Assembly: GCA_029262065.1 (NCBI GenBank)
Contig: JAJDAC010000022.1
Coordinates: 251,982 to 315,981, forward strand
Length of the DNA stretch: 64,000 nucleotides
Origin: Candidatus Krumholzibacteriota bacterium
GTDB taxonomy: Bacteria > Krumholzibacteriota > Krumholzibacteriia > JAJRXK01
Reading direction: 5' to 3'
Below are positions 825-22,012 of this stretch, in pieces. A program made the position numbers and the translations under genes. A model generated the notes under the pieces. The model saw only the letters and a list, made by a program, of their open reading frames with translations. It had not been told where the DNA came from and did not search any database. Numbering within the stretch: position 1 is the first letter of the stretch; every line of letters begins with the position of its first letter.

Positions 825-1730
825 TCAGCGCGATTCTTCACTGTTCGCGGGCTCGGCGGCCACCAAGGCAAGCCACTTGCCGTCGTCGCTGACCGCGAGC
901 CGCGTGATTCCGTGAAGCTCGGAGTCGGCGAAATCGTGCAACGCCACCCAATCTGAACCAGGTGCCCACTCCATGAGCCGCGTGCCGTCGACCATCCATA
1001 TCGTCCGCCACGGCGACCACGCGAAGTCCTGACTTTGTCCAGGAGCATCCACAAGGTCTTCCGTCTCGCCGGTTTTCATGTCGACAACCCGGATCATCCA
1101 CTGATCGTCGTCCCGAGGCTGGGTAAAGGAACCCGCCCGGCGTCCGGGAACGGGCTGCAAAGCACGTCCGATGTCCGCCACCACGCGCACCGACGGCCGG
1201 TCGCCCCGGCGCGCTCGGTGCAGCTCGTGGGGGTCGCCCAGGACGAACAGGATCAGCTCTTCGGAATCGATCCAGGCGTGGTAACCCACGCCCGTGACGT
1301 TCGGATTCACCAGCACCGGCTCGCCCTCGACGGGAAATTCCCAGAGCCGTTGGGTGGAATCGGCTTCCACTCGCACGGTCGAAAATCCACCGCCGGGAAG
1401 CGGCGTGGGAGAGTACTCACTTTCGGCAGTAAACGTGATCCGGCGCACCGCCGGTTGGCCAATATCGTAGGCGTAGATGTCGGCTTGTTCATCCTCACGA
1501 ATCGAAGTGAAGTAGAAGCCCGCGCCATTGGATCCGTCGCCGGGCCAGAAACTGGGCTGGTTGTCGTACCCCGGCCGCTCGGTCACGTTCACCGGCGCGC
1601 CAAACACAATGCTGTCCTCAGACCGGTCGATGGAGACCAGGTGAATATCCATCGCCGGTGGCTGGGCGATCGCGGCGGTAGCAAACGCACCCAGGACAAT
1701 CGGACACCAGAAGAAACAACGAGACATCAT
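825..1730 (-). CDS. Secreted PD40/TolB-like beta-propeller repeat protein
   Basis: The ORF runs to 1919, but an internal Met-Met at 1730 is followed by a signal peptide (MMSRCFFWCPIVLGAFATAAIAQP) and preceded by a GGGAGGGG ribosome-binding site. PD40-like repeats are present (GYDNQPSFWPGDGSNGAGFYFTSIREDEQADIYAYD..). Confidence 0.5.
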   Translation of the reverse strand: MMSRCFFWCPIVLGAFATAAIAQPPAMDIHLVSIDRSEDSIVFGAPVNVTERPGYDNQPSFWPGDGSNGAGFYFTSIREDEQADIYAYDIGQPAVRRITFTAESEYSPTPLPGGGFSTVRVEADSTQRLWEFPVEGEPVLVNPNVTGVGYHAWIDSEELILFVLGDPHELHRARRGDRPSVRVVADIGRALQPVPGRRAGSFTQPRDDDQWMIRVVDMKTGETEDLVDAPGQSQDFAWSPWRTIWMVDGTRLMEWAPGSDWVALHDFADSELHGITRLAVSDDGKWLALVAAEPANSEESR

Positions 1731-1907
1731 GACTACTACCCCTCCCTTGTGAGGTACCACGCTAGCACGGGGCGGTGGATGAGGTCGAGGCGGGCGTGGT
1801 TCTTGCGGTCTATCGCATCCGATACTCCGCCCTGATCTGCTCATGGCTGCCCATGAGACCTTGAAGGATCCCATACGTCCCGACGTCGGTAGTGCCCGGA
1901 GGCCACC

Positions 1908-2942
1908 GTGCGGAAACATGATCTACAAGCGCGCACATTGCGAAGCGCGGGTAGTGTGTTGTTGGCGCTCGTCCTGCTCGCCGATATCACGGGTTGTGAT
2001 GCGCCTCGCCGGAGACCCGTGGTCACTGATCCCGATCCGACCCCGGTGGCAATCGCGAAACCTGCACCAAAGCCTGCACCAAAGCCTACACCAAAGATGG
2101 TCACGCCACCGCCCGCGGTACCGCCCAAGTCCGTCCCCCGCGCGGTGATCGTGGTAGTCAGCGGGACCGATCCCGCGTACGGCAACGTGGCAATCGCCCT
2201 GTCCGACCGTTTTGGCTCAGACGGTGTCACCGTGCTCAACGTGCAGGCGGGACCACTCGATTTGACGCCGGACCTGGTTTCGGACGACGTCGCCGTAATT
2301 GCCGTGGGATTGGGTGCCGCCCTCGCGGTCCGCAAGGCCGGCGTTCGACCCGCGTATTTTTGCCAGGTATTCAACCATCGCCCCTACTCGTTGCTGGATT
2401 CGGGCATGCATGGAATCGACATGATCCCCGAACCGAAACCGGTTCTCCGGCGCTGGCGCCAAACCTTCCCGAACTCGAAAACGATGGGGATCGTTACCGG
2501 CGTGGGACACGAAGACCGAGTGGCCGCGATCGCCGCGACCGCTTCGGATATGGGAATGGAAGTCGTTCACCGAGTCGTAACCTCGGACAAGGAAGCCAAA
2601 CTGGCGTTCGGCAAACTGCTACATTCCGTCGACGGACTCTGGATGCTTCCGGACAACCGCGTGCTTTCACGCGAAGTACTTCAAGATGTTCTGATCCAGG
2701 CCCAAAACCTACGGAAACCAGTTCTCGTGAACACTCCGGCCCTGCTGGCTCTGGGCGCCGCAATGACCGCCTCCGTACATCCGTCGGAAATCGCTTCTCT
2801 GGCGTTCGACCATATTCAAACAACGAACGATACGGCGTCGAGAATGCACACGATTGACAACGTCGAATTCACCATGAATTCCGACGCCGTCGCCTGGATC
2901 CAGGCCGCGACAGACACTCCCGCAACAAAGCCGAGCCGCTGA
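1908..2942 (+). CDS. Periplasmic ABC-type substrate-binding lipoprotein (ABC_sub_bind-like)
   Basis: GTG start. Lipobox LLADITGC followed by a Pro/Lys-rich linker (KPAPKPAPKPTPK). The fold is a class-I periplasmic binding-protein fold (..VIVVVSGTDPAYGNVAIAL.., ..MGIVTGVGHEDRVAAI..). It lies directly upstream, on the same strand, of a GGDEF-EAL sensor. Confidence 0.5.
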   Translation: MRKHDLQARTLRSAGSVLLALVLLADITGCDAPRRRPVVTDPDPTPVAIAKPAPKPAPKPTPKMVTPPPAVPPKSVPRAVIVVVSGTDPAYGNVAIALSDRFGSDGVTVLNVQAGPLDLTPDLVSDDVAVIAVGLGAALAVRKAGVRPAYFCQVFNHRPYSLLDSGMHGIDMIPEPKPVLRRWRQTFPNSKTMGIVTGVGHEDRVAAIAATASDMGMEVVHRVVTSDKEAKLAFGKLLHSVDGLWMLPDNRVLSREVLQDVLIQAQNLRKPVLVNTPALLALGAAMTASVHPSEIASLAFDHIQTTNDTASRMHTIDNVEFTMNSDAVAWIQAATDTPATKPSR

Positions 2943-2947
2943 GGTCG

Positions 2948-5140
2948 TTGATGTCAGGTAGCGAGCCGGCCAAGCCAGACATCGCGTCCCCCTCGGCAAT
3001 CCGCGCCTTCATGGCCCGCATGCCGCAGCCGGGAGTGCGAAGCCTGGTCAGCGATTTCTTCATGGTGCACCTGGTGTTCACCGCGTTCGTTGGGTTGTTG
3101 GCCGTGGGCGCGCTGTGGTGGACGTCGCAGTGGGTTATCGAAGACAACATGAGAAACTGGGCTGTGCAGTGGGTTACCCGACTCGACTCCCTCGGCGCCC
3201 CATTGTACGCCTCGGACCGATCGGCCGAATTCAGCCGGGTCGAGCAGTACGCCCGCCGATTTCCCGAGATCGCATTCGTGCGCTACTACGACGCGGAGGG
3301 CGAGCTTCTGCAGCAGGAGTACAGCAACGGGGGAAACCTGGCCGAACAGGTACCAAACCTCACCGAGGAACAGATCGGGCTACTTCAGGATGGCCTCGAC
3401 GACGAAGATTATGTACTGGACGAACGTTTCGGTGAAGGCCACCGTTTTCGCGCCAGTACCTCTCTGTGGGCCGAGTCCATCGCCTCCGATGGCTTGCTGG
3501 CCTTCGATCTCGAAGGCGATACCAGCCACCCCCGTACTCTTCTGGGATTCGTGGAACTCGGACTCGATTTCGATGAGTACGGCAGCGGACTGACGAGCCG
3601 GGTCCTGAACGTAGGTGTGGCGATCATGGCGGGGGTGTTTCTGCTCGCGGTGGCCGGTCGCTTCGCAGCCAAGCGCGCGCTTTCGCCGCTGAGCCAATTG
3701 CACGAGCCTCTGCATCGACTGGCCAGCGGCGACATGGAGTTCGACCTGCAACAGGGTGGCCACACCGAGATCAAGGCGATCAACACCGCGCTGGTGAGTA
3801 CCATCACCGCACTGCAGGAGCGTGACCGGAAGCTTCGCCGGCTTGCCAACTACGACCCTCTGACCGGCCTCATGAGCCGTCGCGGCTTCGAAGAGCAACT
3901 CGATGCCGATCTGCTCGAAATCGAAAGCGACGACGAACCCGCGGCGCTGTTGTTCATCGATCTGGATCAATTCAAGTACGTCAACGATACGGCCGGGCAC
4001 GCGGCGGGCGATCGCCTGTTGGTACGCGTGGCCGAAACGCTACGATCGTCGCTCCGGGATCAGGACCTCGTCTGTCGCTTCGGCGGCGACGAATTCACCA
4101 TCCTGGCCCGCCACGTCACCCAGACCGACGCCAACACCCTCGCCCAGCAGCTTCTGGACGCGATGGCGGAGATCAATTTCGTGGAGAACGGACACCCATT
4201 CCAGGTGCTCTGCAGCATCGGTGTCACGATCGTGCGCTCGAACAACTATACCGCGACCGAACTGATCGAGCAGGCCGACCTCGCCTGCCACGAGGCCAAG
4301 GCCAACGGAAGGAATCGGCACGAGTTCTACCGGGCAATCGCGGCCGACGAGGAACAGGCCGCCACCGACATGGGCTGGTCCCGTCGCATCGCCGATGCTC
4401 TCGAGAACGACCGGTTCACCCTTCAGTTCCAGCCAATCATCGACATCCAGAGTCGTTCGCCAGTGCTGTACGAAGTGCTCCTACGCATGCGCGCAGGTGA
4501 CAAGATCATCGCGCCCGGTGCGTTCCTGCCCGCCGCCCACCGTTTCGGGTTCATGGTCGACATCGACTACTGGGTGATCCGACAGGCGCTGGAAACCCTG
4601 GCTCAGTTTCGCCAGGGTGGCCACGAAGTGTCGCTGGCGCTGAATCTGTCGGGGGTGGTTTTCGACGACCGGCGCGTAGTCGACTACGTAAGGGAACACC
4701 TGGATAGGAACCAGATTCCAGCCTCGTCGGTGGTATTCGAGATCACCGAACAGATTGCAATTCGGTACGTGGCCGACGCCAACAAGATCATCGGCGAACT
4801 AAAGGAAATGGGCTGCTCGTTCGCGCTCGATGACTTCGGGGCCGGCTTCAGCTCGTTCAACTACCTGAAGCAACTCCCCATGGACTATCTGAAGATCGAC
4901 GGAACGTTCATAGAGAATATTGATCGGGATGAAACCAACCAGGCCATGGTGCGCTCGATGGTTCAGATTGCCAGCGCCGTGAACATGAAGACCATTGCCG
5001 AGTACGTCATGAACGACGCTTCGTTGGCCAAGCTGGAGGAGTTGGGAGTCGACTTCGCACAGGGCTTCCACATTGCCCGCCCCGACAGCGCACTTGCCCT
5101 GGGACCCTTCACGCACGTGGGCGCGGTCGACAACTCCTAG
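2948..5140 (+). CDS. Membrane sensor diguanylate cyclase/phosphodiesterase (TM-periplasmic domain-TM-HAMP-GGDEF-EAL)
   Basis: Two transmembrane segments flank a ~190-aa periplasmic region, followed by a HAMP domain. GGDEF domain with an intact RFGGDEF motif. EAL domain (QFQPIIDI.., VFEITEQ, ALDDFGAGFSSFNYL, LKIDGTFI). Confidence 0.85.
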   Translation: MMSGSEPAKPDIASPSAIRAFMARMPQPGVRSLVSDFFMVHLVFTAFVGLLAVGALWWTSQWVIEDNMRNWAVQWVTRLDSLGAPLYASDRSAEFSRVEQYARRFPEIAFVRYYDAEGELLQQEYSNGGNLAEQVPNLTEEQIGLLQDGLDDEDYVLDERFGEGHRFRASTSLWAESIASDGLLAFDLEGDTSHPRTLLGFVELGLDFDEYGSGLTSRVLNVGVAIMAGVFLLAVAGRFAAKRALSPLSQLHEPLHRLASGDMEFDLQQGGHTEIKAINTALVSTITALQERDRKLRRLANYDPLTGLMSRRGFEEQLDADLLEIESDDEPAALLFIDLDQFKYVNDTAGHAAGDRLLVRVAETLRSSLRDQDLVCRFGGDEFTILARHVTQTDANTLAQQLLDAMAEINFVENGHPFQVLCSIGVTIVRSNNYTATELIEQADLACHEAKANGRNRHEFYRAIAADEEQAATDMGWSRRIADALENDRFTLQFQPIIDIQSRSPVLYEVLLRMRAGDKIIAPGAFLPAAHRFGFMVDIDYWVIRQALETLAQFRQGGHEVSLALNLSGVVFDDRRVVDYVREHLDRNQIPASSVVFEITEQIAIRYVADANKIIGELKEMGCSFALDDFGAGFSSFNYLKQLPMDYLKIDGTFIENIDRDETNQAMVRSMVQIASAVNMKTIAEYVMNDASLAKLEELGVDFAQGFHIARPDSALALGPFTHVGAVDNS

Positions 5141-11198: not shown

Positions 11199-12836
11199 TC
11201 AGCGGCGGCTGTCGTCGGTTTCGAGCTGCTCTCGGGCCAGGCGAGCCTCGAGTCCAGCCTGCTGATGATCGGGATACGCCCGCAGGACACGATTCGCCTC
11301 CGAAAGCGCCTCGCGTGGCCGTCCCTGGAGCCGGTAGACGGTCGCGAGACGTACGGAAATGGACAGATTTTGCGGTGAGTAGCGCGCCGCATCGCGATAA
11401 CACTGCTCGGCATCGACCAGACGTCCCTGCCCGACCAGCAGATCTCCCAGCTTCCAGACCGCCCGCCAGTCGGCGGGAAGCAGCTCCAACGCCCGCCGGA
11501 ACGCTGCCTCGGCCGTCGAAGCGTCGCCGCGGCTGGCCGCGGCATCCCCTTCACGAACTCGCGCCAGCGCGGCCACCACATCCTTTGGATCGGTCAGCAC
11601 CGTGAGCTCGTCGTCGTCGCCCGAGATGTACCCCAACGACGCCAGCATGTTGCGGGTCTGAGCGTCCATCCGGCCTTTCATGTCGGGTCGTACGCCGGTG
11701 AACCACTCCAAGGGATGTTGCTCACGCAGAGTTTGTTCCATGGCCAACGCTTGCTCGGACCCGGCAAGGTTCGCAGCTTCACGGGAATCCGCCGACAGGT
11801 CATATAGCTCGGCGCGTGGCGCGGCTATGTATTTCCAGTTGTCCAGACGAATGCTCGCCAGGGGCGAAGCTCCGTGGTTGTGGAAGGGAACCATGGTTTC
11901 CGAAAGCAACGGGCGACCCGAACGCGGCTTTGCCGCCAGCAACGACACCGACGGCGTCGGGGCCGGAGCGTCCAGCCCACCGAACTCACGCAGGGTGGCC
12001 GCCACATCGATCGTCGATACGGCCGCGGAAACTCTCAAGTTCGCTACCGTCGCATTGGGATCCACCACGATCAACGGAACGTGGATGGTGGACTGATACA
12101 GGAGCAAACCATGTTGCTCCTCGCCGTGCTCGCCCAAACCCTCGCCATGGTCTGATGTAACGATGATCGCCAGGTCCGAGGAGTCGAGACCATCCAGTAG
12201 CACCCTGATCTGGGAATCGACGTAGGAAATCTCCTCATCGTACCGGTCGCGATCGACCGGCCCGGCATGATCGACGTAGGGATGGTGCGGATCGAAGTAG
12301 TGGACCCAGAGAAACCGGGGCCGACCAGCCATGGAGCGCCACGCTTTCAGGGCCGCCGCGGTCGATGTGCCGGCGTCTCGTTCGTGCGCGTCTGCGGATA
12401 GGCCGTCTTCGTCGTAGATCTCGAATGCGCGGGCCAGGCCGTAGCGGGAGCCCAGCACCGTGGAACTCACGACCGCCGCGGTGGCGTAGCCAGATTCGCC
12501 AAGTTCACGCGGAACCAGGGAAACCGACTCGGTGGCCGGCATTCCATTGCTGCGGCTGGCATGCTCATGCGGATACAAGCCCGTCAGCATCGAGCTATGC
12601 GACGGCAGGGTCAGCGGGCTCGTACTCATGGCGTTTTCGTACAGGATGCCGACCGAAGCCAACGAGTCGAGGGTGGCGGTTGCCGCCCGCGAATAGCCGT
12701 ATGCGCCCAGGCGATCAGCCCGCAGCGTGTCGATGGTTATGAGCACAATGTCCGGCTGGTTTCGTGAACCACACGAAACCGATGACAACGCACCCAGCCC
12801 CAGAAGGAGGCACCAGAGTTGACGGATCTTTGGCAA
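11199..12836 (-). CDS. Sulfatase-like hydrolase/transferase (alkaline phosphatase superfamily) fused to C-terminal TPR repeats; lipoprotein
   Basis: Lipobox ALSSVSC. Classic sulfatase N-terminus (DIVLITIDTLRADRLGAYGY). At the nucleophile position the sequence is STSPLTLPSH (Thr/Ser), not the formylglycine CxPxR motif, so it is probably not a true sulfatase. The C-terminal ~110 aa are TPR-like. Confidence 0.65.
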   Translation of the reverse strand: MPKIRQLWCLLLGLGALSSVSCGSRNQPDIVLITIDTLRADRLGAYGYSRAATATLDSLASVGILYENAMSTSPLTLPSHSSMLTGLYPHEHASRSNGMPATESVSLVPRELGESGYATAAVVSSTVLGSRYGLARAFEIYDEDGLSADAHERDAGTSTAAALKAWRSMAGRPRFLWVHYFDPHHPYVDHAGPVDRDRYDEEISYVDSQIRVLLDGLDSSDLAIIVTSDHGEGLGEHGEEQHGLLLYQSTIHVPLIVVDPNATVANLRVSAAVSTIDVAATLREFGGLDAPAPTPSVSLLAAKPRSGRPLLSETMVPFHNHGASPLASIRLDNWKYIAAPRAELYDLSADSREAANLAGSEQALAMEQTLREQHPLEWFTGVRPDMKGRMDAQTRNMLASLGYISGDDDELTVLTDPKDVVAALARVREGDAAASRGDASTAEAAFRRALELLPADWRAVWKLGDLLVGQGRLVDAEQCYRDAARYSPQNLSISVRLATVYRLQGRPREALSEANRVLRAYPDHQQAGLEARLAREQLETDDSRR

Positions 12837-12984: not shown

Positions 12985-14211
12985 TTAGCCACCAAACGCA
13001 TCGAGAACATTCAACACCTGCGCAATGTCAGCCTCGGTATGCGCGGCGTTGATCTGGAATCGTATCGTATCGTCGCCGCGAGGCACCACGGGAAACGCCA
13101 GTCCCACGACCAGGATTCCCTGTTCGAAGAAATGCTGGACCATCGCGCGGGTTTTCTGGGTATCACGAACCATCAGGGGAACCACGGGATGTGGCCCCTC
13201 GATCGATTCCTTGCCCAGTGCCTGCAGGCCGTCGCGAAACTGCGCCACGCGAGCCCGCAGGTGGGACAAGCGTTCCTGGCCCATCGGGCCGTCCACCAGA
13301 TCGACCGACGCCTTGGCGGCCGCGGCGTCGGCAACACTCAAGGGGTTGGTGTAGATATAGGTGTCCGCCTTCTGACGGACCGCCTCGATCACCTCGGCAC
13401 TGGACGCCACGAAGCCACCGTTCACGCCGAAGCCCTTGCCAAACGTCCCTACGACAATGTCGGCCGCCGTATCGCAGTACTCCTCGGTGCCACGCCCCGA
13501 CGCGCCGTAGGCGGCGATGCCGTGGCTATCATCGACAACCGTCACGAGTCCCTGGGGAAAGCGATCCCGGTGCTGGGCGCATAGCGCCTGGATCTGTTCC
13601 ATGGGAGCGTTGTCACCTCGCATCGAGAAGATACCGTCAAAGATCACCACCACGCGCTCGACACCACCCGGTATGCCTTCGAGGCAACGCTGCAGGTGAT
13701 CCATGTCGTTGTGTTTGAAAATGGCCTTGTTCTCGCGCGCAACGTTCGCGATGCGCATGGCGCGGATGATGCAGTTGTGGTTGAGCTCGTCGCCCACCCA
13801 GTACGTTTGCTTGTTCTGGATGGCCAGCGCCAACCCCAGGTTGGCCGTGTACGCCGAATTGAAGATCTTCGCCGCCGGCTTCGACATGAATTGCGCGATC
13901 CGCGTTTCCAGAGCCTCGTGGGCGTCGAACGTTCCATCGATGAAGCGCACGGCGCCCGGCCCCACACCGAACTCACGCGCGGCCACGTCGGCGGCCTCGA
14001 TCAATTCGGGCACGTGCGACATGGATAGGTAGCTGTTCGAGTTCATGCGCAAGTACTCGGTATCCGAACCGCGTAAACGATAGCGTGGCCCACGGCCGTC
14101 ATGGCTTGGCACGTACCCATCGATGATTCGCTCGGGCGCCTTGGCGCGCCCTTCTTCCACCATGGCCGCCACGTCGTTCTTCAGCGCCGAATTCATCTTG
14201 TCCAGGGTCAT
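12985..14211 (-). CDS. kbl: 2-amino-3-ketobutyrate CoA ligase (glycine C-acetyltransferase), alpha-oxoamine synthase family
   Basis: Begins at the internal Met (MTLDKM). The N-terminal region matches E. coli Kbl closely (ERII..., YLS..HPELIEAA...GxGxxxVRFIxGTxDxHxxLExxxAxF). PLP-lysine block GTFGKGFGVNGGFVASS. BioF or serine palmitoyltransferase relatives cannot be fully excluded. Confidence 0.65.
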   Translation of the reverse strand: MTLDKMNSALKNDVAAMVEEGRAKAPERIIDGYVPSHDGRGPRYRLRGSDTEYLRMNSNSYLSMSHVPELIEAADVAAREFGVGPGAVRFIDGTFDAHEALETRIAQFMSKPAAKIFNSAYTANLGLALAIQNKQTYWVGDELNHNCIIRAMRIANVARENKAIFKHNDMDHLQRCLEGIPGGVERVVVIFDGIFSMRGDNAPMEQIQALCAQHRDRFPQGLVTVVDDSHGIAAYGASGRGTEEYCDTAADIVVGTFGKGFGVNGGFVASSAEVIEAVRQKADTYIYTNPLSVADAAAAKASVDLVDGPMGQERLSHLRARVAQFRDGLQALGKESIEGPHPVVPLMVRDTQKTRAMVQHFFEQGILVVGLAFPVVPRGDDTIRFQINAAHTEADIAQVLNVLDAFGG

Positions 14212-14319
14212 GGTACGGAGTGCCTCGTGCGTGGGTGGTGAAAGTTGCCAAGGCAGGATTCTGCCAGCCGGCGTGCATCTCGACAACCCGCACGACGGTC
14301 GCACTGACGAGGGCTTGCC

Positions 14320-14372
14320 TACATCTTTGAAAGTTTGTATTATTTTTCAATAATCAATCTGCCCTGAAACCC
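14320..14372 (+). promoter_or_regulatory. AT-rich divergent promoter/operator island between kbl and the HTH regulator (TTGAAA-17-ATAATC; inverted repeat ATTATT-N4-AATAAT)
   Basis: A ~50-bp AT-rich patch in otherwise ~65% GC DNA. It carries a sigma70-like -35/-10 pair with 17-bp spacing oriented toward the regulator gene at 14385, and a 6-4-6 inverted repeat that overlaps the -10. Confidence 0.35.
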
Positions 14373-14384
14373 ACGGACACGGTC

Positions 14385-14942
14385 ATGGCCCAGGAAATTC
14401 GGGATCCGGAGCAGATCGCGGTACTGGCGTCTGGCATCCGGCAAAACATCGTGGATTACGCGGAAGCCCTCGGGCCCTGCTCGGTGGCCGATCTGGCCCG
14501 GGCGCTCGGGCGTGCCGCCGACTCCCTCTACTATCACGTGCGAATCCTATTGCGGGCTGAGCTGTTGGTGGAACGCGGCACGCGAGGCGAAGGAAGAGAA
14601 GCCGAGGCCTTGGTTGATGTGGCGGCCCGCCCGCTGGCAATTCGCTACGACGACGAAAACGACAACAATCTCGACGCGGTCCGTGACCTTTCGGCGGCCA
14701 TGCTGCGCCTGGCCCAGCGCGATTTCAGCCGCGGGCTGGCAGCCCCCGACGTGCGATTGCACGGACCACGCCGCCAGGTCTGGACGGGTCGGCACGTGGG
14801 CCGGTTGACCAGAGACGAACTGGCCGCCGTGAACGCCCACGTGGAAGCGATTGGTCGAATCTTTCTAAGCAGCTACCAACGACGCGATGGGCATCTTCAG
14901 ACCTTCACGTTTTCCAGCGCCCCTGTTGCCCCCAATGATTAG
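14385..14942 (+). CDS. Winged-helix (ArsR/MarR-like) transcriptional regulator
   Basis: 185 aa. An HTH-like segment (PCSVADLARALGRAADSLYYHVRILLRAELLV) lies near the N-terminus. Divergent from kbl; upstream of the aspartic protease. Confidence 0.45.
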   Translation: MAQEIRDPEQIAVLASGIRQNIVDYAEALGPCSVADLARALGRAADSLYYHVRILLRAELLVERGTRGEGREAEALVDVAARPLAIRYDDENDNNLDAVRDLSAAMLRLAQRDFSRGLAAPDVRLHGPRRQVWTGRHVGRLTRDELAAVNAHVEAIGRIFLSSYQRRDGHLQTFTFSSAPVAPND

Positions 14943-14964
14943 AAACAAGTCCAGGAGGAAGACG

Positions 14965-16470
14965 ATGGTCAGAATCTTCAGCTTGATGGTGACGCTGATC
15001 GCCATGTCGAGCGCGCCCGCGCTGGCTTCGGACCTGTACGAAAGAGTACGGGAGGCCAGTGGTTCACCTACGTCGTCCGCCGGCATTCACCTGACCGGCG
15101 ACGCATTCTTCGTGGGCGAGGAGTGCGATTTTGAATTGCAGCTATCGGGCACCGGGCTCTATCGACGCGAATTTCGCGGACCGATTTCGCTACTGACCGT
15201 CGACGATGGAAGTCCGGCATGGGAACGCGACTGGTCGAACACGGTTCGCACCCTGGCGATGGCCGACCTCGAAAAACCGCGTTTCTTCACGTGGTTGACC
15301 AGCGGCTATTGGCTGCGAGAACCCACGGCGTTTGACGTGGTGGAGGGCGAGGCGCCCAATACGCTCGAACTGACGCTGCGCGGAGGCATCGAGGGAGGCA
15401 CACTTTGGATCGACCCCCAGACCCTTCTGCCGGCCCGACTGGTTCAGATTGAAGACGAACAGGAGACGATCACCACGTTCGCGAAGTACGAGCGGCTGGG
15501 CGAACTCCTGGTGCCCATGCACGTGGAAACCACCAATCCCGTGGGTGAACTCACCTGGGTGAAGGTCTCAAATGCTGGCCCGCTCGATGCCTCGGAGTTC
15601 GGCGAACCTTGGTCTCGGCCTACTTCCACCCCCGCTCGTTTCGAGCCGGGCCTCGACCTGGTAACCCAGGTCGCACCCACGGGACACCTGCTGGTCCAGG
15701 TCCGCGTCAACGGCCACGAACCAGGTTGGTTCATTTTCGACACGGGAGCCGGCGGACACTGCATATCCTCAACGGTTCCCTACATCGATGAACTCCAGAA
15801 GCACGGACAACAGACAGTGGGCGGCGTGGGTGGAAGCGTCACCGCCCCGTACCGCGTGGGAAGTGAACTACAGATCGGGCCCGTCACCATGGATGAACCC
15901 TGGTTCATCGAACTGGACCTGGCGTTTCTGGAGGGACCCATGAACGCGCGCATCGACGGCATCGTGGGCTTCGACCTGCTTTCGCGCTGCGTGGCCGACA
16001 TCGATCTACCGAACGGAGTGGTCGAGCTATTCGATCCGCAAACCTATGAACTCTCGGGAGCCAAGTGGGAGAAGTTGGTGCTGGCTTCCCGCCACCCCAG
16101 TGTGCGAGCGCAACTGGAGGGCGGTCGGTCTGGCCAATTCAAGATCGACACCGGTGCCGCCGGAAGCACGGTGACATTCCACGCCCCGTACGTGGAATCA
16201 TCGGGCCTGCTGTTGTTTCGCGATACCGACTCCAGCACCAGCGGTGGTGTGGCGGGAACCGTCGAAACCCGAAGCGGAGAAATCTCATCGTTCGAACTGG
16301 GTGGTCATCGATTCGAAGACGTGTTCGCGGAGTTCGCGCTGGAGCACAAAGGTGCGTTCGCGAACAAATACACGGCCGGAAACATCGGCGGCCAATTGCT
16401 CAAGCCGTTCCGGCTGGTGCTGAACTACCCGCGCGAAACCCTCGCGTTCGTTCCACGCGGTCCGCAGTAG
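14965..16470 (+). CDS. Secreted pseudo-dimeric retropepsin-like (clan AA) aspartic protease with two DTGA active-site motifs
   Basis: AGGAGG ribosome-binding site 6 nt upstream of the ATG at 14965. Signal peptide MVRIFSLMVTLIAMSSAPALA. Two tandem Asp_protease_2-like halves (VNGHEPGWFIFDTGAGGHCIS.. and GQFKIDTGAAGSTVTF..). The ~230-aa N-terminal domain is of unknown type. Confidence 0.6.
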   Translation: MVRIFSLMVTLIAMSSAPALASDLYERVREASGSPTSSAGIHLTGDAFFVGEECDFELQLSGTGLYRREFRGPISLLTVDDGSPAWERDWSNTVRTLAMADLEKPRFFTWLTSGYWLREPTAFDVVEGEAPNTLELTLRGGIEGGTLWIDPQTLLPARLVQIEDEQETITTFAKYERLGELLVPMHVETTNPVGELTWVKVSNAGPLDASEFGEPWSRPTSTPARFEPGLDLVTQVAPTGHLLVQVRVNGHEPGWFIFDTGAGGHCISSTVPYIDELQKHGQQTVGGVGGSVTAPYRVGSELQIGPVTMDEPWFIELDLAFLEGPMNARIDGIVGFDLLSRCVADIDLPNGVVELFDPQTYELSGAKWEKLVLASRHPSVRAQLEGGRSGQFKIDTGAAGSTVTFHAPYVESSGLLLFRDTDSSTSGGVAGTVETRSGEISSFELGGHRFEDVFAEFALEHKGAFANKYTAGNIGGQLLKPFRLVLNYPRETLAFVPRGPQ

Positions 16471-16480
16471 GCAACGTCGC

Positions 16481-18184
16481 CTAGTGGGAGGCCCCGGTCG
16501 ACACTCCCGCTCCGTCGCCTTCCTGGCTGGGAGCGGGGTCTGCAATCGGTGGCGCCACGGGGCGTGGTTTGCGGGGCATCTTCTCGGCTCGGTTGGCCGC
16601 ATGATAGACCAAGGACGCCAGCACCGCGGCCGACCGCTTGAGGTCTTCGGGCACCAGGTAGTCGTAGGTGTCGAGATGGCTGTGGTGCGTCAATGCGAAA
16701 TAGTTCATGGGATCCTGGATGAACTGAAACGCGGGCAGACCCACGTCGTTGAACGGCACATGGTCGGTACTGGTGGTACCGTTCAGCGTGACCTGGGTGG
16801 CTCCCAGGTCGTGGACTGGCTTCAACCAGGATTCCAGGACGGCCCCCGCCGCGACATTGCCCTCGGCGTAGATACCGCGGATACGGCCCGAACCGTTGTC
16901 CAGGTTGAAGTAGACCGAAAACCGATCGTGAGCCGGGCGATACTCGATGGGCCACTGCTTGTCGTACATCCCCGGGGATAGTAGCTCGGCCCCCTCCACT
17001 TCGGGCGCCGGTCGCGACGCGAAGGTCTGGCCCACGTACGCGGTCGAACCCAGCAAACCCTGCTCTTCGCCGGTCCACAGTCCCACGCGAACCGTGCGGG
17101 CCAACGGAAGGTCCAACGCACGGAGAATACGCACCGCCTCCATCACCACGGCGCAACTACCTCCGTTGTCGGTGGCACCGTCTCCGGACTGGTAGGAATC
17201 GAGGTGCGCGCCCAACATCACCACCTCGTCGCGTTTCTTGCCGCCGGGAATCTCAGCTACGACGTTGTGGCCCATGCCACCGTTATCGTGGAACTTCGCC
17301 TTCACGTTGATTTCGAGCTCCACCTCTTGTCCATCATCGAGCAACCGCACCAGGCGATTGTAGGCCTCTGACGAAAGCCCCACGGCCGGGACACCGCGCG
17401 CGCCGCCGGACCGGTGCGACCCTCCGCGTCCTACTCGCAGAATGCCGCCGTCACGTGAGCTGATACCAACCACGGCGAGGGCACCCTCCTCCACGAGAAA
17501 CTCGTTGAGCACAAGCCGGAACAGATATCGCTTCTTGAACTTCGTGCGCCACTCCGCCGGCTTGCCATCGGGAACCTGGAAATCGTACTGCTCGGCCAAC
17601 TCGTCGGAGTCCAACCTCTGAAGATCTCGCTTGGCCTCGAGATCGACATCTCGTGGTTCGTCGATCAATAGGATCTTGCCCTTCAGCGTCCCCCTCAGTT
17701 CCTCCAGATCCTCTTCTTCCTTGGCCTCGAGCCTGACCACCGAACCCTTCACGGGCCCGTCGGTTCCAGGAGTCCAGCCCTGGGGCATGGCCGGCAGCAT
17801 GGCGGGACGAGGCGAGGTCATGTGAACCGAACAGTGTTGCCAGTCCCACCCATCACCGAACTCGTAGGGTACGCGCTCGCCTTCGAGGCCCCATTCGGCC
17901 ATCGTCGCCAAGGACCAGCGTTGGGCTTCATGCGCCGCCGGTGATCCGGTAACACGTGGGCCGATGACATCGGCCAGGTGGCGGGCGAGGTCCATCACCT
18001 GCGAACGGTGAAAGGCTTCGTTGCGAATCCGATTCACCACGTCAAGGTCGACGGGTTCCTCGGCGCGCGAGTTCGAAGAAAACGGAAGGATCACCGGCAA
18101 GGCCAAGACGAGGGCCCACACCGGGTGCGAACGCAGGGCGAAATTCAGCGAGGTCATCGTTGAGCTCCGGGGTAGAGTTGGCAA
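16481..18184 (-). CDS. M28-family zinc aminopeptidase with PA domain, secreted
   Basis: Signal peptide. M28 metal-ligand blocks (HNVVAEIPG.., MLGAHLDSYQSGDGATDNGGSCA, GEEQGLLGS, HHSHLDTYD). Confidence 0.75.
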   Translation of the reverse strand: MPTLPRSSTMTSLNFALRSHPVWALVLALPVILPFSSNSRAEEPVDLDVVNRIRNEAFHRSQVMDLARHLADVIGPRVTGSPAAHEAQRWSLATMAEWGLEGERVPYEFGDGWDWQHCSVHMTSPRPAMLPAMPQGWTPGTDGPVKGSVVRLEAKEEEDLEELRGTLKGKILLIDEPRDVDLEAKRDLQRLDSDELAEQYDFQVPDGKPAEWRTKFKKRYLFRLVLNEFLVEEGALAVVGISSRDGGILRVGRGGSHRSGGARGVPAVGLSSEAYNRLVRLLDDGQEVELEINVKAKFHDNGGMGHNVVAEIPGGKKRDEVVMLGAHLDSYQSGDGATDNGGSCAVVMEAVRILRALDLPLARTVRVGLWTGEEQGLLGSTAYVGQTFASRPAPEVEGAELLSPGMYDKQWPIEYRPAHDRFSVYFNLDNGSGRIRGIYAEGNVAAGAVLESWLKPVHDLGATQVTLNGTTSTDHVPFNDVGLPAFQFIQDPMNYFALTHHSHLDTYDYLVPEDLKRSAAVLASLVYHAANRAEKMPRKPRPVAPPIADPAPSQEGDGAGVSTGASH

Positions 18185-18213: not shown

Positions 18214-19290
18214 CTACCGGGCGTAGCCCTCGCCGGCTTCCAACCGAAGTTGCGCCAGCCACCGCATGTACTTGTCCTGTGGGTCGAGTTCGATCGCGCG
18301 TTCAGCACTAACCATGGCTTCCCGCTCGCGGCCCATTACGTCCGCGGCCAACGACTTGTTGAAATGATTGGCGGCGTCGTTGGGGTAGGCCCGCACCGCG
18401 GAACTGAATGCTTCGTACGCCTTGTCCCACAGACCCGACTGGGCGTAGGAGATACCCAGTTCGGTCTGGGGCAGTTCATTGTTCTCGAAGTTCACACGAC
18501 GCGTAACGGTGCGCGGATGAATGCGACCCAGGAACCGGTACGTCACCTCGGCGGCCAGGTCTTCCAGAATGACATCCTTGGGTGGCAACTTCTCTCGTTC
18601 GTCGTCCCAAGCCCGCTTGGCGAAGCGCGCGGTTTCCGACTTCAGCGCCACGATTTCACCCGTGTTGATATTGGCCAGGCGAAAGGTCACACCAACGTTG
18701 CCCTCGCGCATCACGTAACCGCGATCGATCAGGATCACCTCGGTGATCTCTTCTTCGATGGTCTCGATTTCGCCTTCGCCATTCTCGCGCTCCACGGTGC
18801 GGTACCGCCCGGTACCCACCTCGCGCTCGATGCGCTCCACTCCGGTCTGCTGGTCGATGCTATACGCGTCCACCACGCCAAAGATCAGAGCATCGACGCC
18901 CATGAGCTTCAGGTCACGGACCGTGTCGGGGTCGACGACATCGGAATCGTTGAAATCGCGCTCGGCCAGGATGCGATCCAGCTCGTCTCGCTCGAACAGC
19001 TGGAAGTAGCCCTCGTCCACGATGCCTTCGGCCAACTTGGCCGAGATCATTCGCCCCGAACGATCGAGACCGCGGAACTCGGCCACGGCAATGCGCTGGA
19101 TTTCGTCAACGTTGGCTTCGGGTGGTACTACCATGCTGTAGTACGCGGATTTGGACGAGCAACCCAGTAGGGCCATACAGGCCAGTACCAGGACAGGAAG
19201 AATACGTTTGATGGACAGCACCGCGGCCTCCGGGGAACGGGTCGGTGGAAATGGGACACTCCACCGACCCGTTAGCAATTGGAACGCCAA
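18214..19290 (-). CDS. Lipoprotein with CsgG/LpoB-like N-terminal domain and C-terminal TPR
   Basis: Lipobox LLGCSS; the true start is probably internal, near 19220. A CsgG-family-like block (IQRIAVAEFRGLDRSGRMISAKLAEGIVDEGYFQLFERDELDRIL...MGVDALIFGVVD). C-terminal TPR (YAQSGLWDKAYEAFSSAVRAYPNDAANHFN..). Confidence 0.4.
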   Translation of the reverse strand: MAFQLLTGRWSVPFPPTRSPEAAVLSIKRILPVLVLACMALLGCSSKSAYYSMVVPPEANVDEIQRIAVAEFRGLDRSGRMISAKLAEGIVDEGYFQLFERDELDRILAERDFNDSDVVDPDTVRDLKLMGVDALIFGVVDAYSIDQQTGVERIEREVGTGRYRTVERENGEGEIETIEEEITEVILIDRGYVMREGNVGVTFRLANINTGEIVALKSETARFAKRAWDDEREKLPPKDVILEDLAAEVTYRFLGRIHPRTVTRRVNFENNELPQTELGISYAQSGLWDKAYEAFSSAVRAYPNDAANHFNKSLAADVMGREREAMVSAERAIELDPQDKYMRWLAQLRLEAGEGYAR

Positions 19291-19330: not shown

Positions 19331-22012
19331 TTACAGGTCTCGATTCACCTGGGCGTCGAGCGCCGCCACGATGCGGGCACGGCTTTCATCCAGGTGGGCC
19401 CGCGTCTCGTCGTCGACAGTACCGTCGCCCAGCGCCGAATCGATGCTGGCCCGCAGCTCGACCAGATTGGCCCGAGCGAACGACATGGCGTCCTCAGGCA
19501 CGCGAATCTGGCCCGCGGGCTCGTTGCCTCTGAACGGTGAGTACCACGGTGCGCTGGGCGGGTCCACGGCCAGAGCGATCAAGTGACGCAGGTGCGCCCG
19601 CTGTAGGTTGCGACGGAAGCTGTTGATCGTGCCCGCCGTCCCCACTTCGGACCAGATGCTCTCGCCCACCTCACGAAAGACATCGTGCATGGTCAGCGGG
19701 TTGCTGCCTGGCTCGAAATGCAACGGGAAATCGAGCAGACGGTTGAGCAGGATCGGGTGGTAGATACGCGACAGTGCCGCGCGTTGGGCATTCAACACCA
19801 CGTCGTGCAACGGGTAGTCGATGCGGGGCGCGTAGTACTGACTCCAATCGAAATCCATCAGGCGCTCCGGCGCGAGCTTGTTGGTAAGACTGGCCGGCAC
19901 GGTGAACGACTCTTCGCTGAACAGGTGGGTCTTCAGGAAGTCCAGCGCTCGGCGCTGGTCTTCCACCGTGACCGGTTCGAACGGCAGGCGCCCTTCGGGG
20001 TCACCAATGTGGTCCCGGTTGTGATGAAAACCAGCCAGGTATTTGGGTACCACCGCGGCCGCCGTGAAGTACGCGCCCATGGAGCGGCCAAATACCGTAC
20101 GGTGCTTCTGGTAGCCGCCGCCCTTGTTGGCGAAGGTCTCCTCCATCGAACCAATGACCTCGCCCACCAACGCGATTCGCTGAGCATGGTAACCAATGGG
20201 GTCCGAACTGAGATCCCACGGGTTGATGACGGGATCGATGCCACGCGGTGAGAAACCCAACGCATCTTCGTCGGTGCCGTAGGCCAACATGGGCTCGGAC
20301 GAACGCGACGCGATGGCCTCGAGTTGTTCCATCTGCGAATCGGGATCACCGGCAACGGGTGTGTACGCGTACTCGATGGCCCACATGTCGTAGGTACCGA
20401 GTGTGGTATGGAAGAACTCGCCCTGCTCGGCGCCGCGAGCCGCAATGTTCACCGGGTTATAGTCCATGACCGAACCGGTGAGACCGTACTTCTGCGTGCG
20501 CTCGCGATCGTTGAGCTGCTCGAGGGTATGCAACGTGCTGGCGTGGTAGTTGTGACGCATACCCAGGGTGTGGCCCACCTCGTGCGCCACGAGATCCACG
20601 ATGGCCTCGTGCAGATACCGACGGAACTCTTCGGAATCGGTGTCGGTAATGCCTCGGGCCATGAGCAGATCGCCACCGAACGCGACCTCCCGTGCCTTCT
20701 GCGATCCGTAGCTGCACGCATCGCTAGCTACCGGCGGCACGTCCAGCTGCATGACGTCGGCGAAATTTGTCAGCGGGTTCACCTGTTCGTCGTAGGACAG
20801 GAACATGGCGCGTACGTAGTCAGCCGAGATTCGAATGTCGGCCGCGTACAACTCACCTGTATAGGGATTGGCACTCGACGGGCCCACCGCGTAGGAACCG
20901 CCGGGCATGACGATCCAGCGAATGGTGTTGTAACGGATGTCCGAAGGATCCCACTCGGCATTGTCGGGCATCTGCTTTACCACCACCGCGTCCTGGAAAC
21001 CCAGGGCATCGAACGCCTGGTTCCAGAGCAGGGCCCCCTCGCGGATGGACGCACGGTACTCGTGAGGCACCGTGTTCTCGATCCAATAGACGATCGGCTT
21101 CTGCGGCTTGCTCTTGGTGGCCTCGGGGTTGGACTTCTTCAGGTTCCATCGGTTCACGTACCAGATGTACGGCGTATCGCGCTCGAGTGAAGAAAAGTCC
21201 TGGAACTGCGTTACGAAGTGGCCCACGCGATCGTCGGCGTAGCGCGGTTGGTAGTCCGACTCGGGGATCGCCGAGAGGCTGAACCGGTAGCGATGCTGCA
21301 TGCTGCGGGCATCGGGAATCCGCATGTTGGTGGCGATCTGCTTCTTGCTGGTGTAGTGAGCAACCAGCTCGATTTCGGCGTTCATGGGGAACGATTTGAT
21401 GAACGAAAACCGACTGCCACTCTTGTCGAACGAGTAGCTCAATTTGGCCCGACCCGAACTCAGAGCCTCGGCGATGCCAAGGTGGTCCTGAACGAAAAAG
21501 TCAGCCGGATCGACGAGCCAACTGCCGCGCTTCTCGTGCTTGGGGCCCTTTATCTCGGCTGTGCCCACGACCGAGTTCGTGACGCCACGTTCCACGGCGC
21601 CTGCAATGGGTAGATCCGCGTCGGCACGGTAGTACACGTTCTTGTGCAGCAGCCGAATGTTGTTGCCGGTCTTTTCGAAGATAATGGGGTAGGCGGAAGC
21701 CATGGTGCCCGAGTCGAAGAACATTCCGTCCCCCGCTTCGCGCGCGACATCACACATGTACACGGTACCCAGTTGCTCCGGCGTGATCTCCATGTACCAC
21801 TTATCGTCATCGTCATGGCGGTAGAAGGTGAATAGGCCTTCGACGGTATCGAAGTCCTCGATCATGGCTTCGAACGTCTTCTCTTCCTTCTTGTCATCAC
21901 CCGACTTCTCGCCCTTGGCTTCTTTATCCTCGTCGCCGCCGGCCGATACGGGCATGGCGACGAACAACACTAGGAGGAGGATCCCGAGAGTTCGGGTCGT
22001 CCTTGGATTCAT
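19331..22012 (-). CDS. Large secreted zinc-dependent metalloprotease (metzincin-like HExxHxxGxxH; DUF4953-type)
   Basis: Signal peptide and an acidic/Lys-rich linker. Zinc-binding motif VAHEVGHTLGMRHNYHAS. 893 aa. Confidence 0.7.
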   Translation of the reverse strand: MNPRTTRTLGILLLVLFVAMPVSAGGDEDKEAKGEKSGDDKKEEKTFEAMIEDFDTVEGLFTFYRHDDDDKWYMEITPEQLGTVYMCDVAREAGDGMFFDSGTMASAYPIIFEKTGNNIRLLHKNVYYRADADLPIAGAVERGVTNSVVGTAEIKGPKHEKRGSWLVDPADFFVQDHLGIAEALSSGRAKLSYSFDKSGSRFSFIKSFPMNAEIELVAHYTSKKQIATNMRIPDARSMQHRYRFSLSAIPESDYQPRYADDRVGHFVTQFQDFSSLERDTPYIWYVNRWNLKKSNPEATKSKPQKPIVYWIENTVPHEYRASIREGALLWNQAFDALGFQDAVVVKQMPDNAEWDPSDIRYNTIRWIVMPGGSYAVGPSSANPYTGELYAADIRISADYVRAMFLSYDEQVNPLTNFADVMQLDVPPVASDACSYGSQKAREVAFGGDLLMARGITDTDSEEFRRYLHEAIVDLVAHEVGHTLGMRHNYHASTLHTLEQLNDRERTQKYGLTGSVMDYNPVNIAARGAEQGEFFHTTLGTYDMWAIEYAYTPVAGDPDSQMEQLEAIASRSSEPMLAYGTDEDALGFSPRGIDPVINPWDLSSDPIGYHAQRIALVGEVIGSMEETFANKGGGYQKHRTVFGRSMGAYFTAAAVVPKYLAGFHHNRDHIGDPEGRLPFEPVTVEDQRRALDFLKTHLFSEESFTVPASLTNKLAPERLMDFDWSQYYAPRIDYPLHDVVLNAQRAALSRIYHPILLNRLLDFPLHFEPGSNPLTMHDVFREVGESIWSEVGTAGTINSFRRNLQRAHLRHLIALAVDPPSAPWYSPFRGNEPAGQIRVPEDAMSFARANLVELRASIDSALGDGTVDDETRAHLDESRARIVAALDAQVNRDL

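Follow-up and report, generated by a model that had tools for sequence, protein, structure and literature searches.

The window analyzed here is a 64,000-nucleotide (nt) stretch of contig JAJDAC010000022.1 from a Candidatus Krumholzibacteriota bacterium, and our subject is its putative aspartic protease gene, together with the winged helix-turn-helix (wHTH) regulator gene upstream of it and the M28 peptidase gene downstream. We prefer the reading, with a probability of about 0.72, that the first two genes form an operon encoding a Phr-type repressor and an exported, fused two-flap retropepsin with a LolA/LolB-like barrel, the M28 gene being a chance neighbour. In this model the repressor most likely binds TTGAAA-N12-TTTCAA as a dimer over its own promoter, and would, by occluding that promoter, silence the operon until a signal lifts the repression. 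The second gene would encode a Sec-exported aspartic endopeptidase in which the LolA/LolB-like barrel, an ordered linker and two tandem retropepsin-type domains follow one another. The two domains are predicted to pack together in the manner of a covalently tethered retroviral protease dimer, with one catalytic Asp (D259 or D395), one Gly-rich flap and one psi-loop coming from each half. With all three elements present in each half, no dimerisation should be needed and an asymmetric cleft becomes possible; the protease may thus be catalytically active as a monomer.

Architecture and predicted fold of the protease

The earlier note, written from the sequence alone, had proposed two tandem retropepsin-like halves, each with its own D-T-G-A motif, and both motifs (FIFDTGAGG in half 1 and FKIDTGAAGS in half 2) were located. 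PF13650 gave two stretches in the whole protein; when the protease was cut into three pieces and scanned again, the halves alone scored 40.1 and 28.3 bits, where the cut-off is 24.3 bits. As both halves separately exceed the cut-off, the double DTG motif is not a matter of chance. All 45 homologues matched PF13650, and the conservation counts given here refer to columns of this 45-sequence family alignment, whose members share 30-41% overall identity. D259 was invariant (45/45) and D395 was present in 44 of 45 sequences; each stands at the head of a D-T/S-G-A motif. In the flap tip of half 1, G-V/I-G-G (residues 287-290), G287, G289 and G290 were found in 42-44 of 45 members; that of half 2 (residues 427-431) has the family form GGVGG in 43-45 of 45, with GGVAG in the window protein. 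Over both halves, the catalytic and psi-loop (hydrophobic-hydrophobic-Gly) motifs were kept in 41-45 of 45. Half 1 aligned to half 2 in BLASTP with 26% identity over 120 residues (E=7e-8), and the two half-profiles aligned to each other in hhalign with a probability of 96.7% (E=3e-10). Judged by these alignments, the halves are homologous to each other.

The AlphaFold2 model built with the family alignment had a mean predicted local distance difference test (pLDDT) value of 93.1 and a predicted template modelling score (pTM) of 0.90, with pLDDT below 50 at residues 1-17 only. In a Foldseek search against the PDB, the top match was 9IY9 (E=7e-13), followed by engineered single-chain or covalent HIV-1 protease dimers with template modelling scores (TM-scores) of 0.68-0.74; as these scores are normalised to the target, the match takes in both HIV-1 protomers together. 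Further down came pepsins, plasmepsins, cathepsin D and the C-terminal domain of Rv0977. On the tethered HIV-1 dimers, 181 of 192 residues superposed at 2.8 Å with a TM-score of about 0.7. In the predicted structure, the halves pack as in a retropepsin dimer or a pepsin bilobe, and we infer the apposition of D259 and D395 from the superposition of the model on pepsins and covalent HIV protease dimers. The single-chain pseudo-dimer of the earlier note was borne out in this way, with both halves matching the retropepsin profile and the model superposing on tethered HIV-1 dimers and pepsins. Its comparison with eukaryotic pepsins holds for the covalent fusion and fails for kinship, the protein being closer to a tethered retropepsin with two flaps and halves that are 26% identical. 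No Pfam family of the A1 (pepsin) group matched the protease at E<=0.1, so that the A1 likeness is one of fold only. The scores for PE-PGRS_C (PF20729; 14.2 bits, cut-off 33) and PecA (NF038019; 13.6 bits, cut-off 150) fell below the values for membership. A PDB search with the single protease sequence returned noise only, and the family profile was needed for an informative match.

The N-terminal leader consists of an n-region (MVR), a hydrophobic core and the ending APALA, followed by the residues SD, and a hydrophobic N-terminal stretch was present in 43 of 45 family members. The leader is Sec-like by eye and by hydropathy, in keeping with the signal peptide claimed before, and the protease would be exported. 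The roughly 230-residue N-terminal domain that the earlier note had left unplaced can now be placed as LolA/LolB-like: it has the unclosed beta-barrel fold of the LolA/LolB superfamily (the Pfam clan with LolA, LolB, LolA_like PF17131, DUF4292 and DUF1329), and weak sequence signals agree. These signals were a match of the family profile to LolA (2w7q, E=0.005), DUF4292 hits in 8 of 45 members (best E=7.7e-4) and a PF17131 score of 25.3 bits, below the cut-off of 30, in the relative P0115. The N-terminal 229 residues of the window protein had no Pfam match at E<=1, and the domain stayed below the sequence-profile threshold of the superfamily. In the linker that joins it to the core, F226 is conserved in at least 90% of the family alignment.

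As for function, the likeliest task of the barrel is to bring in envelope substrates that are hydrophobic or lipidated, or else to serve as a regulatory module; it may take part in substrate choice or cleft access much as PDZ domains may in sister proteins. Ala after DTG goes with activity at neutral pH in renin and retropepsin (PMC2761423), and the protease is probably active near neutral pH since Ala follows each of its DTG motifs in the same manner. Characterised bacterial retropepsin-like enzymes, namely APRc (PMC4140852) and RloA (PMC12239564), act in envelope processing. By analogy with these two, a processing or quality-control role is favoured over bulk digestion.

The protease belongs to a large family. 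Word-indexed searching yielded 163 relatives, of which about 90 were full length at 32-41% identity and mostly from metagenome-assembled genomes (MAGs) of Planctomycetota. When the profile was searched exhaustively, 2,059 clusters (50% identity) matched at E<=1e-30 and a further 23,361 at E<=0.001. Nearly all of the top 150 clusters were about 460-570 amino acids (aa) long (one had 912 aa), with the profile covered almost end to end. The relatives carry the existing annotations "retropepsin-like aspartic protease" and "aspartyl protease family protein". In one-genome-per-species data, 177 loci with a relative were found, in Phycisphaerae and other Planctomycetota, Armatimonadota (Fimbriimonadales), Acidobacteriota (Pyrinomonadaceae), a "Ca. 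Eisenbacteria" MAG and Engelhardtia mirabilis Pla133. The tandem core occurs alone (about 320 aa), with the N-terminal domain (about 500 aa) or with PDZ domains, as in Dyella monticola (626 aa). Four PF13650 stretches, making two tandem pairs, were found in the candidate fusions P0002 (814 aa; positions 1535-4135 of locus L017) and P0155 (912 aa), the latter also having a C-terminal PDZ domain. One MAG (CAYRXS01; loci L036 and L053) contains two paralogous LolA-like/tandem-retropepsin genes, both without a helix-turn-helix (HTH) partner.

Regulator, operator and gene neighbourhood

The regulator is assigned to the ArsR/SmtB superfamily and, within it, to the PH1932/Phr type. Its family profile matched PH1932 (1uly, E=1.9e-7) in the PDB and, more weakly, ArsR/NmtR and Phr. 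In the AlphaFold2 model (pLDDT 72), two long helices come after the wHTH, and the best Foldseek matches, at E of about 1e-5, were 1uly/2cwe, 4g6q (Kfla_6221), SmtB and Phr (2p4w). Residues that are invariant in the family fall in the recognition helix (GRAxDSLYYHxR) and among the Arg/Asp of the C-terminal helices, and no Cys is conserved. The regulator is a predicted DNA-binding protein of the repressor type; its score on NF033788 was 19.4 bits, below the cut-off of 55.

An HTH regulator with an AT-rich inverted-repeat operator had been proposed for the locus, and cross-locus comparison substantiated this. The perfect TTGAAA-N12-TTTCAA palindrome occurs once in the window, at the position given in Table 1, and both promoter-like hexamer pairs overlap it. 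Of 48 loci, 40 have this 6-12-6 palindrome with <=2 mismatches just 5' of the HTH start, 13 of them perfect; as a control, 2,075 windows drawn at random from these loci gave 11 matches of that quality (0.5%). Across 837 kb of locus DNA there were 29 sites with <=1 mismatch; each lay upstream of an HTH gene, and at this threshold none lay upstream of a protease gene without HTH. Furthermore, the variants covary on both arms (GTGAAA...TTTCAC, TTGAAT...ATTCAA, TTAAAA...TTTTAA and TTGTAA...TTACAA). A generic inverted-repeat finder (seed 6, minimum length 8) misses half-sites of 6 bp, and the motif was obtained from the cross-locus comparison. A 6-bp repeat alone is weak evidence for an operator, and it is the comparison across loci that makes the sequence evidence strong. 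The putative operator is autoregulatory-looking, being placed at the regulator's own promoter. In cultured Engelhardtia mirabilis Pla133 (NZ_CP036287.1, 4402980-4414470), the HTH-protease pair has the operator TTGAAA-N12-TTTCAC, and the protease orthologue lies at about 4.4080-4.4095 Mb.

In many loci (L013, L021, L025, L012, L041, L068 and others; start positions are approximate), about 1-12 nt separate the end of the operator from the start codon of the HTH gene. In the same loci the operator spacer holds a -10-like hexamer, and a ribosome-binding site has no room. An operator that abuts the start codon in so many loci suggests leaderless HTH transcripts there.

Of 83 related loci, 47 had an HTH homologue directly upstream of the protease gene and in its orientation, frequently with a 4-bp overlap, and a profile re-search for divergent HTH genes in the HTH-less loci left this count at 47 of 83. 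Three loci from an exact look-up illustrate the arrangement: each has an HTH_20 gene of about 200 aa directly upstream, on the same strand and overlapping the protease gene by 4 bp, and what follows downstream varies from locus to locus (M16 peptidases, an amino-acid permease and GH127). The 36 HTH-less loci comprise all those of Armatimonadota and Acidobacteriota and some of Planctomycetaceae, three being cut off upstream. HTH being missing from these loci, the pairing is lineage-specific: it is frequent and not obligate. Besides HTH, all-against-all clustering of the open reading frames (ORFs) in the 83 loci gave no other recurrent neighbour. A cluster of ORFs from 11 loci was rejected as a conserved neighbour, as it proved to be a spurious high-GC antisense ORF.

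A search from the regulator side added three independently found HTH-family loci, in which the regulator gene precedes genes for other proteins of exported type. In L085 (3001-4927), the HTH gene lies upstream of a retropepsin+PDZ protein (415 aa), and in L086 (2975-5782) it is followed by a 264-aa ORF and then by a TPR+retropepsin protein (434 aa); in L084 (2972-5502), it lies upstream of a CarboxypepD_reg protein (578 aa). Retropepsin-domain genes were thus downstream of HTH in two of the three loci, and the operator was found 2-5 nt before the HTH start in two of the three, L084 and L086. Two candidates from these loci were rejected: the 264-aa ORF of L086 is not a split LolA-like gene, being unrelated to the N-terminal domain, and the CarboxypepD_reg protein of L084 turned out to be no cryptic relative.

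In the window itself, the three ORFs named in the earlier note were all present at its coordinates. An alternative longer reading of the protease starts at 14887, which is less likely than the ATG at 14965 because AGGAGG stands 7 nt before the latter. The M28 protein is exported-looking, and H/D/EE/D/H zinc-ligand motifs were recognised by eye (HLDS, TDNGG, GEEQG, LDNGS and DHVPF). Intrinsic terminators were no more numerous than expected by chance.

Table 1 Features of the regulator-protease locus (positions in the window; residues of the protease unless stated otherwise)
Feature	Position	Strand	Description
Promoter-like region	14315-14354	+	TTGCCT-17-TATTAT and TTGAAA-16-AATAAT, consensus scan
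Putative operator	14327-14350	.	Inverted repeat TTGAAA-N12-TTTCAA (TTGAAAGTTTGTATTATTTTTCAA)
wHTH regulator ORF, ArsR/SmtB superfamily, PH1932/Phr type	14385-14942	+	185 aa; wHTH and two long C-terminal helices; PF12840 (HTH_20) 30.1 bits, cut-off 27
Shine-Dalgarno AGGAGG	14952-14957	+	7 nt 5' of the protease ATG, 22 nt past the HTH stop; read from the sequence
Protease ORF	14965-16470	+	501 aa; two PF13650 stretches
Predicted Sec signal peptide	14965-15027	+	Residues 1-21, MVRIFSLMVTLIAMSSAPALA, then SD; judged by eye and hydropathy
Predicted LolA/LolB-superfamily beta-barrel domain	15028-15588	+	Residues ~22-208
Ordered linker	15589-15672	+	Residues ~209-236; conserved P-x-D-x-x-F-D motif; pLDDT 79-92
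Retropepsin-like half 1	15673-16068	+	Residues 237-368; PF13650 40.1 bits alone
Motif FIFDTGAGG	15730-15756	+	Half 1
Predicted catalytic D259	15739-15741	+	Half 1
Flap tip GVGG	15823-15834	+	Half 1, residues 287-290
Psi-loop I-V-G		+	Half 1, residues 333-335
Retropepsin-like half 2	16069-16470	+	Residues 369-501 and stop codon; PF13650 28.3 bits alone
Motif FKIDTGAAGS	16138-16167	+	Half 2
Predicted catalytic D395	16147-16149	+	Half 2
Flap tip GGVAG	16243-16257	+	Half 2, residues 427-431
Psi-loop N-I-G		+	Half 2, residues 473-475
Peptidase_M28 ORF	16481-18184	-	567 aa; PF04389, E=1.8e-33, 116 bits

Further genes surround the locus, all on the minus strand. A class I/II aminotransferase (12985-14304) is divergent from the HTH operon and has the intergenic region in common with it, and a sulfatase fused to C-terminal TPR repeats lies at 11199-12836. 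On the other side are a 358-aa protein with a CsgG-like domain (PF03783) and C-terminal TPR repeats (18214-19290) and an 893-aa exported-looking peptidase with an N-terminal hydrophobic leader and the domains DUF5118, DUF5117 and DUF4953 (Met-zincin, HEVGHTLGMRHN; 19331-22012).

Competing explanations

The M28 gene was the neighbour to which the earlier note had given a part in the system. Its peptidase family and its convergent placement proved right; a place in a conserved module did not, since all 83 loci lacked an M28 homologue within 5 kb of the protease gene, and the M28 peptidase is a chance neighbour. A regulated extracellular nutrient module of HTH, fused protease and M28 aminopeptidase, in which the endopeptidase cuts and the aminopeptidase trims, is on these grounds decidedly unlikely. 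In its favour are the N-terminal hydrophobic leaders on both peptidases, the mere 10 nt between their genes and the abundance of exported hydrolases in the wider window, including the DUF4953 Met-zincin and the sulfatase. Against it, HTH is the sole recurrent neighbour, convergent genes are not co-transcribed, no second operator site was found near the M28 gene, and APRc and RloA are envelope processing rather than bulk digestive enzymes (PMC4140852, PMC12239564). A different rival, a non-catalytic pepsin-fold binding protein comparable to the xylanase inhibitor TAXI-I, Bla g 2 or basic 7S globulin, is highly improbable: the D-T/S-G-A, flap-tip and psi-loop motifs of both halves are kept in 42-45 of 45 homologues, and such conservation at 30-41% identity is the pattern expected of purifying selection on catalysis.

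Another explanation, compatible with our reading of the core, takes the LolA-like domain and linker as an intramolecular pro-segment, so that an exported zymogen would be activated by autoprocessing or by a ligand. Autoprocessing is known from pepsinogens and from APRc (PMC4140852). The predicted arrangement of the domains is of high confidence (pTM 0.90), and the linker is ordered, with a conserved F226-D motif. Homologues of about 320 aa without the N-terminal domain exist as well, and the protease core is therefore autonomous. LolA-like domains, on the other hand, are known as carriers of lipid and acyl chains and not as pro-segments, and the PDZ domains of sister proteins are substrate-recognition modules, which leaves the pro-segment rather unlikely. 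Of similarly low probability, and to be taken as speculation, is a broader version of the repressor-protease operon: a stress-induced envelope system, mainly of Planctomycetota, in which a Phr-like repressor with its dedicated TTGAAA-N12-TTTCAA operator would control a protease whose barrel captures lipidated or hydrophobic envelope proteins for the tethered, two-flap retropepsin, the enzyme itself being a surviving example of the duplication-fusion intermediate that has been postulated between homodimeric retropepsins and pepsins.

Three observations weigh against the two-gene operon with a Phr-type repressor. Both HTH and operator are lacking in 36 of the 83 protease loci; P0122, the closest HTH homologue, stands before a CarboxypepD_reg protein that is unrelated; and neither a metal-sensing site (alpha3 Cys or alpha5 His/Asp/Glu) nor another recognisable ligand site is conserved in the regulator family.

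Significance and relation to known systems

The fused-dimer architecture is not new or unusual at the database level, given its Pfam and NCBI annotation, about 2,000 clusters and a solved relative. As the architecture is already annotated and a relative has been crystallised, the locus is a well-documented lead and not the discovery of a new kind of protein. What appear to be new here are the placement of the N-terminal domain in the LolA/LolB superfamily, the alignable halves with both flaps, and the conserved regulator with its operator. In our literature search, whose coverage was incomplete, no description or experimental study of natural bacterial tandem retropepsins was found. Pepsins are thought to have arisen when a homodimeric ancestor with a single lobe underwent duplication and fusion (Tang et al. 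1978 via PMC2761423; PMC4140852). A natural fused retropepsin with alignable halves and two flaps could model the duplication-fusion intermediate and the origin of active-site asymmetry. Aspartic proteases with a fused LolA/LolB-like barrel or PDZ domains suggest a class of envelope proteases yet to be explored, a candidate class that spans Planctomycetota, Armatimonadota, Acidobacteriota and beyond. Moreover, the operator motif offers a handle for regulon prediction and reporter assays, and the cultured carrier Engelhardtia mirabilis Pla133 is a possible experimental system.

Among known proteins, 9IY9 from Bacteroides fragilis, a 'putative endopeptidase / exported protein' released in 2025, is a solved but remote structural relative, 15-20% identical to the window protease and 420 aa long against 501 aa; our search found no paper on it. 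With the retropepsins (MEROPS A2), and with the tethered HIV-1 dimers 1HVC, 3KA2 and 4EP2 in particular, the protein shares the whole-molecule superposition and the two flaps. Its fusion is natural where theirs is engineered, and it is bacterial, exported-looking and equipped with a LolA-like domain; the cleft would be asymmetric because its halves have diverged to 26% identity. Pepsins have one flap. Compared with the pepsin-like A1 enzymes (including shewasins) and the PE-PGRS/PecA domain (4EHC), the window protease has two flaps and halves that can still be aligned, whereas the lobes of pepsins show no sequence similarity beyond the motifs (PMC2761423). APRc of Rickettsia is described as a single-domain obligate homodimer (PMC4140852), in contrast to the fused halves found here. 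Both APRc and RloA/RimB of Pseudomonas have other accessory parts and no LolA-like domain, and no HTH partner is reported for them in the literature consulted. RapL of Rickettsia was also checked and is unrelated to the question of tandem retropepsins.

The regulator resembles PH1932 (1ULY), Phr (2P4W) and Kfla_6221 (4G6Q) in having an N-terminal wHTH, long C-terminal helices and a length of about 190-200 aa, and a palindromic operator with widely spaced half-sites is common to both. Its family differs from this type in being bacterial and mostly from Planctomycetota, in having no conserved metal-sensor residues, and in the operator TTGAAA-N12-TTTCAA defined here.

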